Source of the DNA: Myxococcales bacterium
GTDB taxonomy: Bacteria > Myxococcota > Myxococcia > Myxococcales > UBA5297
Length of the DNA stretch: 64,000 bases
Assembly (NCBI GenBank): GCA_050288705.1
Contig: JBNKEI010000093.1
Coordinates: 1,460 to 65,459, forward strand
Direction of reading: 5' to 3'
In this document: piece after piece, positions 61,557 through 64,000 of the stretch
Numbering within the stretch: position 1 is the stretch's first letter
Layout of the letters: each line of letters opens with the position of its first letter
Program-made: the position numbers and the translations under genes
Notes under the pieces: generated by a model
Told to the model about the DNA's origin: nothing
Seen by the model: the letters and a program-made list of their open reading frames with translations, nothing else
Database searches by the model: none

Positions 61557-62756
61557 ATGAGCGAACCCCGATTCTTCAACACTGCTGGTCCCGTCAATAG
61601 TGAGTGGCATTATTTGGTACCGCCCCTTTCGCGTATTGATCTAGACGGCGTGCAGTCGCTCGTTAATCAACGCAAGTACTTTGTTCTCCATGCCCCTCGC
61701 CAGACCGGAAAAACTTCCTGCTTGAACGCTTTGGCGGAACACCTGAATGCTCAGGGCAAATATCGAGCGTGCTACATTAATGTGGAAATTGGGCAACCAG
61801 CGCGCGATGATACCGAGAAAGCCTTCTCGGGAATTGATCGCGAGCTAGTTTGGGCAGCGCGAGCCATGGGTGAGCCGCGCCTTGATCTTTTTCGCAAAGA
61901 GCTGGCTAGCGATTGGAATGCGGTTAACACTTTTTCTGAGCTACTAGGTCGCTGGGCGGAACTCGATCTCACTAAGCCGGCAGTGCTTATTATTGACGAA
62001 GTCGATGCGCTGGTCGGAGATACACTCATCACCCTGCTTCGGCTTCTGCGCACCGGATACAACAAACGCCCGCGATGGTTCCCTTCCAGCGTGATTCTGT
62101 GCGGAATACGTGACGTGTGGGATTACCGGCTGTTTTCTTCGGCAGAGAAAACCGTTATCACCGGTGGCTCGGCATTTAATATAAAAGCAGAATCACTTCG
62201 CCTAGGTGATTTTAATCGGCAACAGGTGGAAATGCTGCTTAGTAAACACACCGCCGCCACCGGCCAAATCTTTACACCAGAAGCAAGCAACACCATTTGG
62301 AGCCTTACCCAAGGGCAACCTTGGCTAGTTAACGCCCTTGCTTACCAAGCTTGCTTTGTAGATAAGCAAGGCAAAGACCGATCACATCGTATTGATCACC
62401 AACTAATCGACACCTCGAAAGAAGCTCTCATCTCTCGGCGAGACACTCATGTTGATCAGCTTGCCGATAAACTGAGAGAAAAGAGAGTTCACCAGGTTAT
62501 CCAGCCCATTCTCGCCGGATCAACTCTAGACGAGGTTTCCTCGGATGACCTGCAATATTGTCTTGACCTAGGGCTAGTCCGGGAAACTCCCACTGGAATC
62601 GCAATCTCCAATCCCATTTATCGTGAAGTCATCCCCCGAGAGCTAACTTGGGTCACCTAGGAAAGTTTGAAAAGCGTTTTCTTTCCCGATTGGATTAAAC
62701 CTGACCAATGTCTCGATTTGGGGAAGCTTCTCTTAGCGTTCCAAGATTTCTATCAG
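61557..62756 (+). pseudogene. AAA-ATPase-like (P-loop) family gene, interrupted by an in-frame TAG (62658-62660) and lacking its 3' nuclease-like portion
   Basis: MSEPRFFNTAGPV, Walker A HAPRQTGKTS and LIIDEVDAL. After the TAG the same frame continues ESLKSVFFPDWIKPDQCLDLGKLLLAFQDFYQ, which matches the remembered continuation of this family. Similarity stops near 62756, next to the integrase 3' end. Confidence 0.55.
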
Positions 62757-64000
62757 ATAAATACTTGCTCAAAAAAACCTAGCAACTACGGCGACTTAGA
62801 CGCTACAAAACTGGCCGTGCCTTGATTGTGCCGCTCGGTTACATTGGTTTCGGACCGATCAAGAACCTGCACCGCTGACCGTTTGGTTTCGGGTGAAAGG
62901 TGAGCATAGAGCATGGTCATATCTATGGTGGAATGACCCAAAAGCTCTTGAATCACCTTTAGTGGCACGCCTTTCATTGCGAGGTGGCTTGCGTAGGTAT
63001 GGCGCAAATCATGCCACCCAATAACGCTGCCCTCGCGGCTAATTCCCGCATTACACAAAACCTTGGTACGTAATGCGTTCATTCTCCCTTCAGTCATTGG
63101 GGAACCGTCTGGTCTGCAAAACACATACAATCCTTTGGAGTGCCGATGTGCTCGAAGCGCCTCGACCAAAGACCGTGGAATATCCACCGTTCGTGAACGT
63201 CCGCTTTTAGTAGGGCCAATATTCCCATCGGAAATCGACCGGCGTACAATGATTGTTGCGTTATCAAAATCGATATCGTTCCATTGCAGGCCAATTATTT
63301 CTCCAATGCGTAGTCCTGCCTTTAGCGCAATCATGATTGCTATTCGAAGGTCTGGCGGGGCTACCTCAATCAGTCGATCCGCTTCTTCAAACGAGAGAAA
63401 ATCAAATTTTTTCTCTCCCTTCTTAAGCAGTTTTAAACGCGGATTCCCGGAAATGATTTTCCACTCTTGAGCGATTCTTAACATCCTTTTCAAAACAAGC
63501 AGAACGATATTGATGGTCGCTGCATTTAGATGCATCTTGCTCCTGTTTCCTGCCGAAATCTTGTTTTTAAGAACATTTTTAAGGTTCTCGATTTCAACCT
63601 CATTTATCGCGTCAAGTCGCTTACTACCCAGTGCCGGAATAAGATGTAGATCTAATATACATTGCCTGGTCTTCACCGTATTCGGCCGATTGTTATTTTT
63701 CACATAGGTCATAAACTGGGGCACAAATTCCGCCAACGTCGGCACCTCCTTTTTCACACGGTCTGGACTGAGTAGCGCTTGCCGAACTTGCCGCTCATAT
63801 TCCTCGGCTCCCCGTTTGGTCTGCATTGGGGATACTTTCCGGATTCGCTCTCTCCTGCCATCCGCATGTTCGAAATCCACATCCACAACCCACTTGTCTA
63901 CTTTGGTTCCATCCTTGTTCTTGTAACTTCTCCGATAAACGCTCATTTTTTAAGACCTCCCCGAGCGAGAACCAGAGCACTTGCCGCGCACCCACATTAC
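62757..64000. mobile_element. Probable left end of an integrated element (integrase-proximal end). The remainder is outside the window.
   Basis: The integrase gene abuts the point where the AAA-ATPase-like reading frame loses family similarity. No att repeat could be defined within the window. Confidence 0.4.
62786..63946 (-). CDS. Tyrosine recombinase / phage-type integrase
   Basis: Catalytic-domain motifs AGLRIGEIIGLQW (Arg), WHDLRHTYASHL (His-x-x-Arg) and LLGHSTIDMTMLYAHL (His...Tyr). There is an N-terminal arm-type DNA-binding region. GGAGG lies upstream of ATG 63946. Confidence 0.92.
   Translation of the reverse strand: MSVYRRSYKNKDGTKVDKWVVDVDFEHADGRRERIRKVSPMQTKRGAEEYERQVRQALLSPDRVKKEVPTLAEFVPQFMTYVKNNNRPNTVKTRQCILDLHLIPALGSKRLDAINEVEIENLKNVLKNKISAGNRSKMHLNAATINIVLLVLKRMLRIAQEWKIISGNPRLKLLKKGEKKFDFLSFEEADRLIEVAPPDLRIAIMIALKAGLRIGEIIGLQWNDIDFDNATIIVRRSISDGNIGPTKSGRSRTVDIPRSLVEALRAHRHSKGLYVFCRPDGSPMTEGRMNALRTKVLCNAGISREGSVIGWHDLRHTYASHLAMKGVPLKVIQELLGHSTIDMTMLYAHLSPETKRSAVQVLDRSETNVTERHNQGTASFVASKSP

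Follow-up and report, generated by a model that had tools for sequence, protein, structure and literature searches.

The 64,000-nt stretch of DNA analysed here (the window; Myxococcales bacterium, GenBank assembly GCA_050288705.1, contig JBNKEI010000093.1) carries near its right end the 5' part of a gene for a P-loop ATPase with a PD-(D/E)XK-like C-terminal module, followed on the opposite strand by the genes for a tyrosine integrase and an excisionase-like protein (Table 1). The present analysis concerns this gene, which appears to have been split by an integrative element, and the whereabouts of its missing 3' end. An ATG at 61557 opens a reading frame that runs MSEPRFFNTAGP..HAPRQTGKTS..IIDEVDAL..GQPWLVNAL..VIPRELTWVT and then meets an in-frame TAG at codon 368; it includes a Walker A (HAPRQTGKTS) and a Walker B motif (IIDEVD). 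Beyond the TAG, the same frame reads ESLKSVFFPDWIKPDQCLDLGKLLLAFQDFYQ and then INTCSKKPSNYGDLDATKLAVP (beginning INTCSKK...), followed by a stop codon. In a Pfam search the 5' part matched AAA_35 (E 2.5e-10, 40.1 bits, cut-off 27), and AAA_22 was also above its curated cut-off; the translated tail past the TAG gave zero Pfam matches.

The closest non-self match of the window open reading frame (ORF) is P0002, a paralog of 530 aa on contig 40 of the same metagenome-assembled genome (MAG). The BLASTP alignment with P0002 comprised 285 identities over 404 positions (query residues 1–402 on subject residues 1–403) and was continuous through the TAG; 17 of the 34 residues that follow the TAG were identical. 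The last ~127 residues of P0002 had no counterpart in the window. The similarity to the family ends after position 62756, and the integrase stop codon (62786–62788, minus strand) lies 29 nt beyond. In the alignment of full-length homologs the column of codon 368 holds glutamine in 102 of 113 sequences and glutamate in the other 11; given the glutamine in most homologs, the TAG is explained by a single C-to-T change from CAG. We take it for a genuine mutation rather than an assembly error. The exact product of the window ORF is entered as P0001 on contig JBNKCJ010000007.1 (contig 7) of assembly GCA_050287685.1, where the gene callers report a protein of 348 aa that begins at an internal TTG and ends at the TAG. 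Positions of locus L001 are converted to window positions by adding 51613.

These results bear out the initial annotation, which had described an ORF from 61557 with AAA-ATPase-like motifs, its interruption by a TAG at 62658–62660 and a frame past the TAG that keeps the similarity to the family. The family pattern that it had given (YKEAGPQLLLQAFLQRI with a PD-(D/E)XK-like end) fits the real homologs, and the similarity ends after 62756, where it had placed the divergence near 62757, ~30 nt before the integrase stop. The alignment to full-length homologs stops at codon ~400–402 of ~530 and not at the TAG.

Table 1. Features of the split gene and of the element ends. Positions refer to the window unless preceded by L018 (locus on contig 52) or L001.
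Feature	Position	Strand	Basis or remark
5' part (codons 1–400) of the split AAA_35 P-loop ATPase / PD-(D/E)XK-like gene	61557–62756	+	Pfam AAA_35, alignment with P0002
In-frame TAG, codon 368	62658–62660	+	Homologs have Q or E there
CTATCAG, 7-bp identity at both junctions	attL 62750–62756; attR L018 2024–2030		Presumed strand-exchange overlap
Element-side arm of attL (P' arm)	62757–62838		Contains TACTTGCTCAA (62762–62772) and CCGTGCCTTGATTGTGCCGCTCGG (62815–62838)
Tyrosine integrase, 386 aa, terminal gene of the element	62786–63946	-	Pfam, PHROG, catalytic columns
Excisionase-like HTH_17 gene, 97 aa	63950–64000, on to 64243 (L001 12337–12630)	-	Separated by 3 nt from the integrase start, on its upstream side
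Other end of the element	L018 1–2023		Unassigned 173-aa ORF and C-terminal fragment of an IS91/ISCR-family transposase
IS91/ISCR transposase fragment	L018 987–1457	-	NF052416 positions 381–488 of 509, E 2e-17; 570 nt inside attR
Displaced 3' end, 130 codons and stop	L018 2031–2423		Frame open throughout; in-frame reading

The displaced 3' end and the junctions

The last 129 residues of P0002 served as the query for the missing module. P0242 (112 aa, 67% identity), called "hypothetical protein", ranked second among the matches; it sits on contig JBNKCJ010000052.1 (contig 52; locus L018) of the same assembly as P0001, ~2 kb from the contig end. Read in frame, the region of P0242 extends to 130 codons, ENGAAWTKRFAYQEVGPQLLVQAFLQRI...TDLYIRW...LELKIL...WGM and stop; its translation starts with ENGAAWTKRFAYQEVGPQLLVQAFLQRIANGNGRVEREYALGTGRTDLYIRWPYSGGTQKAVLELKILHKS, ends with ITIWGM and has the D...ExK residues intact (TDLYIRW...LELKIL). 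Joined end to end, the 5' part from the window and this 3' part give an ORF of 1593 nt, that is 530 codons and a stop, which is exactly the length of P0002. At the junction (marked here by a slash) the joined frame reads ...LLAFQDFYQ/ENGAAWTKRFAYQEVGPQLLVQAFLQR... (...LLAFQDFYQ/ENGAAW...), in agreement with the pattern F-[FYW]-x-E-[HN]-[SG]-E-x-W of the family, and the sequence of the uninterrupted gene across the junction is predicted as ...TTCTATCAGGAAAATGGT.... P0002 is the nearest relative of both halves, with 70.8% identity for the 5' part (residues 1–400) and 67.7% for the 3' part (residues 402–530).

The joined ORF still has the TAG at codon 368, and the split gene would therefore stay broken even after precise excision; the longest predicted product is an ATPase-only fragment of 367 aa. 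Of the 147 columns conserved to at least 95%, only one shows a deviation in the rebuilt protein, by a substitution common to its paralog clade; in the intact paralogs 2–7 do. With fewer deviations than the intact paralogs, both lesions (insertion and TAG) look recent, and apart from these two neither gene half appears visibly degraded. The protein database gave no uninterrupted allele of the split gene; its best non-self match is the 71% identical paralog P0002.

The two gene halves meet the element at the same 7-bp sequence, CTATCAG. The junction in the window (attL) reads GCGTTCCAAGATTT-CTATCAG-ATAAATACTTGCTC, and the one on contig 52 (attR) reads ATCTTCCCAGATAA-CTATCAG-GAAAATGGTGCAGC. For all 7 bp to agree by chance at the single position set by the gene join, the probability is 6e-5. 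In addition, 12 of 18 bases in the immediate flanks of CTATCAG match between the junctions (binomial p 2e-4), and the 7 bp together with the matching flanks are as left by an exchange between attB and attP in which attB resembles the attP core. The rebuilt attB is CAAGATTTCTATCAGGAAAATGGTGCAGC and the rebuilt attP is CCCAGATAACTATCAGATAAATACTTGCTC; in the latter (...TTTAATTTATCTTCCCAGATAA-CTATCAG-ATAAATACTTGCTCAAAAAAACC...) the integrase stop codon stands 29 nt to the right of the overlap.

The non-gene sides of the junctions also share sequence. TACTTGCTCAA is present at both element ends, on contig 52 at L018 1781–1791, and CCGTGCCTTGATTGTGCCGCTCGG of the window matches CCGTGCCATTATCGTGCCGCTCGG (L018 1874–1897) at 21 of 24 bases, with a BLAST E value of 0.005 within 2 kb × 2 kb. 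The order of the two repeats is identical at both ends. Within each 24-nt block a pair of GTGCC motifs is spaced 11 nt apart, at about −148/−137 and +67/+78 from the overlap. Both repeats are candidate arm-type or core-type binding sites of the integrase, the GTGCC motifs as arm-type ones. Since the arm repeats are shared, they give independent support that both contig ends belong to one element. As judged from these sequence features, the two junctions would link contigs 7 and 52 and would define attL, attR and the 7-bp crossover of an uncharacterised integrase. The initial annotation had proposed to look for the displaced 3' end of the gene and for a direct repeat where the element ends beyond the window: the former was located as P0242 and its in-frame extension, which completes the 530 codons, and the latter as the CTATCAG that precedes the 3' fragment. 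Its proposal that an element inserted into the 3' part of the gene is supported by both.

The integrase and the element ends

The integrase matched Phage_integrase (PF00589) with an E value of 5.9e-34, as well as Phage_int_SAM_3, and PHROG 1 (integrase) with an E value of 1.2e-74. In an alignment with 7 relatives, the catalytic columns R213, H312-x-x-R315, H338 and Y347 are invariant, and the integrase is apparently intact. Its last ~20 residues fall within a tail that is variable among all aligned relatives, and this tail overlaps the P' arm. A basic insertion of ~17 residues (..RKEAPTKWAIKKRYG.., alignment columns 145–161), kept in 7/7 relatives, is absent from the integrase of the window (62789–63946, minus strand). 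The 97-aa protein encoded next to it matched HTH_17 in Pfam (E 1.6e-10) and the excisionase domain TIGR01764 in NCBIfam (36.8 bits, cut-off 28.8). Contig 7 stops 786 nt past the window, inside the element, and the extra stretch holds the HTH_17 gene and an ORF of 131 aa.

The nearest integrases are ~50% identical, and most of the named ones come from Myxococcus, Corallococcus and allies. Two Myxococcus-type relatives at ~50% identity were viewed in their genomic context. Both have an HTH_17 gene adjoining the integrase gene, and the integrase stop codon lies 16 nt from an RNA gene that converges on the integrase (tmRNA in L024, tRNA-Arg in L026). No tRNA or tmRNA gene was found in the window, L001 or L018, and no Rfam family matched at either junction. 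A scan of a genome-contig collection that does not include this MAG gave relatives of the integrase at 24–35% identity only. No close phage relative was found: the scan of viral contigs gave 26–27% identity, and in a tblastn search of a phage collection all matches were below 60% identity, with at most 30% among the 12 matches listed. GC content showed no contrast between element and host. At the other end of the element, the IS91/ISCR transposase fragment may explain the assembly break inside the element. No terminal inverted repeats were seen at the element ends.

Origin of the split gene

The best explanation, to which we assign a probability of about 0.87, is that an integrase-bearing element split the ATPase-nuclease gene, the tail of which is found on another contig of the same genome. 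An integrative element with a tyrosine integrase and an excisionase-like gene at one end would have entered codons 398–400 of the 530-codon gene, with strand exchange within the CTATCAG common to the attP of the element and the attB of the gene. The insertion would have left attL in the window, consisting of the 5' part of the gene, CTATCAG and the integrase end of the element, and attR on contig 52, consisting of the other element end, CTATCAG and the 3' 130 codons. The integrase described above presumably catalysed the reaction. The change of codon 368 from CAG to TAG would have been a separate event. In place of the displaced 130 codons the element supplies an unrelated tail of 22 codons; since the displaced sequence is not replaced, in contrast to the relatives of the integrase that target tRNA and tmRNA genes, the gene would lose its nuclease-like module.

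Several points weigh against this explanation. The element ends are on different contigs that do not overlap, and the interior is missing; we infer their physical continuity. The exact identity at the junctions extends over 7 bp only, which is far shorter than the usual blocks for islands that target tRNA genes, and the insertion site may be a secondary (off-target) site rather than the preferred attB of the element. No empty-site allele and no free attP were found in any of the collections searched, and a degenerate 30-nt pattern for attB, attP, attL and attR gave 0 matches in metagenome contigs and 0 in viral contigs. No clear inverted core-type sites were seen around the overlap. Finally, there are no fewer than three other paralogs in the genome, and the two fragments could in principle derive from different copies.

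That the fragments were left by two different paralogs, or that the junctions are assembly chimeras, with no single insertion behind them, is nevertheless highly improbable. Such a history would draw on the at least four family copies in the MAG, on the fact that both junction contigs end inside the element, and on the general experience that MAG binning and assembly can mislead. However, the fragments abut to the codon and sum to exactly 530 codons, the 7 bp and the similar flanks are common to both, and the non-gene sides share the arm repeats. Each junction is ~2 kb inside its contig, away from the edge, and the paralogs, at 61–71% identity, are too divergent to mis-assemble and have no CTATCAG at the equivalent site. 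Just as improbable is a target-site duplication, made for instance by an IS91/ISCR-like transposase near attR with the integrase as mere cargo. The length of 7 bp is plausible for such a duplication, and the transposase fragment lies 570 nt inside attR, but it is only a C-terminal fragment and terminal inverted repeats were not seen. The similarity at the junctions goes past the 7 bp into the flanks, as expected for attB and attP, and the integrase ends 29 nt from the junction, in the same terminal position as in the relatives that target tRNA and tmRNA genes. IS91-family elements move by a rolling-circle mechanism and are not known to leave target duplications, which also counts against this possibility. 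A gene that naturally ends near the TAG, as a short ATPase-only form with chance similarity downstream, would agree with the 348-aa product of the gene callers, P0001, which ends at the TAG. This form was considered and is practically excluded by the homologs, 113 of 113 of which continue with Q or E in the TAG column, by the continuous alignment with P0002 and its 17/34 identity after the TAG, and by the recovery of the rest of the gene on contig 52.

The same insertion might also be functional, as a split that can be reversed (regulated gene integrity, or a switch of the active-lysogeny type) and in which excision by the integrase and the excisionase rebuilds the gene. The integrase and excisionase genes both look intact, precise excision gives back the 530-codon frame, and both halves keep nearly all conserved residues, as the intact paralogs do. 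The TAG at codon 368, however, would truncate the rebuilt gene, the good conservation equally fits a recent insertion, and the transposase fragment in the element is a sign of decay; excision products or an empty site were not found in the protein, metagenome or viral collections. We consider a reversible split very unlikely. Also improbable is the proposition that the insertion is something other than mere damage, acting either as a reversible on/off switch, which would hold only if the TAG were an artefact of assembly or had arisen very recently, or as insertional anti-defence that disables a nuclease-type host gene otherwise directed against the element. If one of these were true, an integrase of a clade that normally targets tRNA and tmRNA genes would have been retargeted to the coding sequence of a multi-copy, widely transferred family.

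With genomic islands and prophages that occupy a tRNA or tmRNA gene the element shares the terminal position of the tyrosine integrase gene, the 3' end of which points toward the junction, and the HTH_17 gene directly upstream of it; the target gene is likewise split, and the displaced 3' fragment marks the far end. It differs from them in that the target is the interior of a protein-coding gene with no RNA gene at either junction, that the identity between attP and attB is 7 bp only, and that the 3' end of the target is not regenerated. An attP of the lambda type has a 7-bp overlap, repeated motifs in both arms and a xis gene beside int. The element has a 7-bp overlap too, arm motifs ~130–150 nt away on one side and 60–80 nt on the other, and an Xis-like gene beside the integrase gene, whereas its binding sites are deduced from repeats and the 3' end of the integrase gene reaches into its P' arm. 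Among the elements known to interrupt coding genes are skin in sigK and SPbeta in spsM of Bacillus subtilis, the comK prophage of Listeria, and the nifD and fdxN elements of Anabaena. As with these, two abutting halves are separated by an element that brings a recombinase of its own, and the frame would be restored by precise excision; unlike these, the split gene also has a nonsense codon, signs of regulated excision were not seen, and the target is multi-copy and not a developmental or competence regulator. Further candidates for 'regulated gene integrity' are those of Mageeney et al. 2020, as cited in PMC12424338. The logic of split targets has been used for the mapping of tRNA-borne islands of the Islander type (PMC4383910).

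The event is a standard outcome of island integration and of a known kind. A survey that covered ~1.75 million mapped genomic islands found 43.4% of them inserted in protein-coding sequences (PMC12424338), and because such insertions are common no new question is opened here. Only mildly unusual is that two relatives of the integrase target tRNA or tmRNA genes and this element has entered a coding gene that it does not repair, which adds a small data point on shifts in integrase site choice. The result is mainly one of annotation: what the gene callers list as a protein of 348 aa is in fact two-thirds of a split pseudogene, from its 5' side, and a 112-aa "hypothetical protein" is its tail.

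Gene family and neighbourhood

The split gene belongs to a large family, with at least 8000 relatives scored among 5.8 billion proteins, a number reached at about 51–57% identity. Nearly all of the 120 relatives listed are 523–561 aa long and about 53–71% identical. The proteins consist of a P-loop ATPase at the N-terminus and, at the C-terminus, a module of predicted alpha-beta-beta-beta-alpha-beta order with an invariant D and E-x-K. In a 56-sequence alignment of the C-terminal module, D71, E88 and K90 are invariant, among others. The AlphaFold model of the module (pLDDT 88.5) has the order helix-strand-strand-strand-helix-strand, with the D in strand 2 and the E-x-K in strand 3. A Foldseek search of this model against the PDB gave nothing at E ≤0.001; the best functionally coherent matches, all with E >0.001, were CinB (probability 0.99, TM 0.48), EndoMS, PaqCI and MspJI, which are of the PD-(D/E)XK type. 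PF08011 (PDDEXK_9) reached 15 bits with a threshold of 25.5, and PF09820 13.5 and 12.1 bits with a threshold of 26.1, both below, and some family members have precomputed hits to PF08011 or PF09820. As judged from the predicted fold and these matches, the label "PD-(D/E)XK-like" for the module appears reasonable, if not proven. The combination of a P-loop ATPase with a C-terminal module is shared with the architecture of PF09820 (Predicted AAA-ATPase) with PF08011, and PF14516 (AAA_35), but the family of the split gene passes curated cut-offs only for AAA_35 and AAA_22.

A search of PDB sequences found no relative of the family with a solved structure, and a full-text literature search for AAA_35 / PF14516 returned noise only. 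With the PADLOC defence models, P0002 and P0008 gave no match, and the window fragment gave a non-significant E value of 0.0086 with no single stretch passing. By source names, the family occurs in Competibacteraceae, Chloroflexota, Desulfobacterales, Acidobacteriota, Gemmatimonadota, Planctomycetes and Chromatiaceae, and many stand-alone C-terminal fragments of 112–225 aa are found on long contigs of up to megabases. The wide range of lineages and the stand-alone fragments suggest horizontal spread and frequent truncation of the family.

One other truncation falls close to the break described here. P0068 (409 aa; L019–L023, from several unrelated metagenomes) ends a few codons past the equivalent position, with ...LLAAFLAFWRCHGQPSARRRSG and a stop. 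It has no integrase nearby; an unassigned ORF of 271 aa comes next. In P0068 the same module has been truncated independently, by a different route. Recurrent insertion at this codon was considered and rejected: P0068 is without an integrase, the stand-alone C-terminal fragments start at various positions, and the paralogs of the MAG are without CTATCAG there. A protein of 156 aa on a 791-nt ENA contig, P0245, matches the family only from ...EHLEHWVERF on, at the same spot as the break. The preceding MECEDIRKRLKTFLDDDIEEDDGTAIQEHL resembles the N-terminus of an anti-sigma zinc finger, and P0245 may be a fusion or an assembly chimera.

The MAG holds at least four copies of the family, namely the split gene and those at L018 2505–4106 (+), L018 7984–9579 (-) and L002 10001–11593 (+). 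P0008 (533 aa), a tandem paralog, originally lay 81 nt downstream of the split gene. The third copy, of 531 aa, follows 3.9 kb further on the opposite strand, beside PIN and RarA/MgsA-type genes. The locus of P0002 on contig 40 also has a HepT/Polbeta (MNT-type) gene pair, and an 88-aa gene call that overlaps the 3' end of P0002 at the contig end has a translation without recognisable features.

At the left boundary of the split gene no mobile-element genes were found. Directly upstream of it, at window positions 58545–61494 on the plus strand, lies a four-gene 2-oxoacid:ferredoxin oxidoreductase cluster in the order small ferredoxin-like ORF, POR_N/transketolase_C, TPP_enzyme_C and POR gamma. 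The cluster is preceded on the opposite strand by a gene for a TPR protein of 554 aa, an ordinary housekeeping context. An ORF of 151 aa (window 61155–61610, minus strand), antisense to the end of POR gamma and the start of the split gene, is probably spurious.

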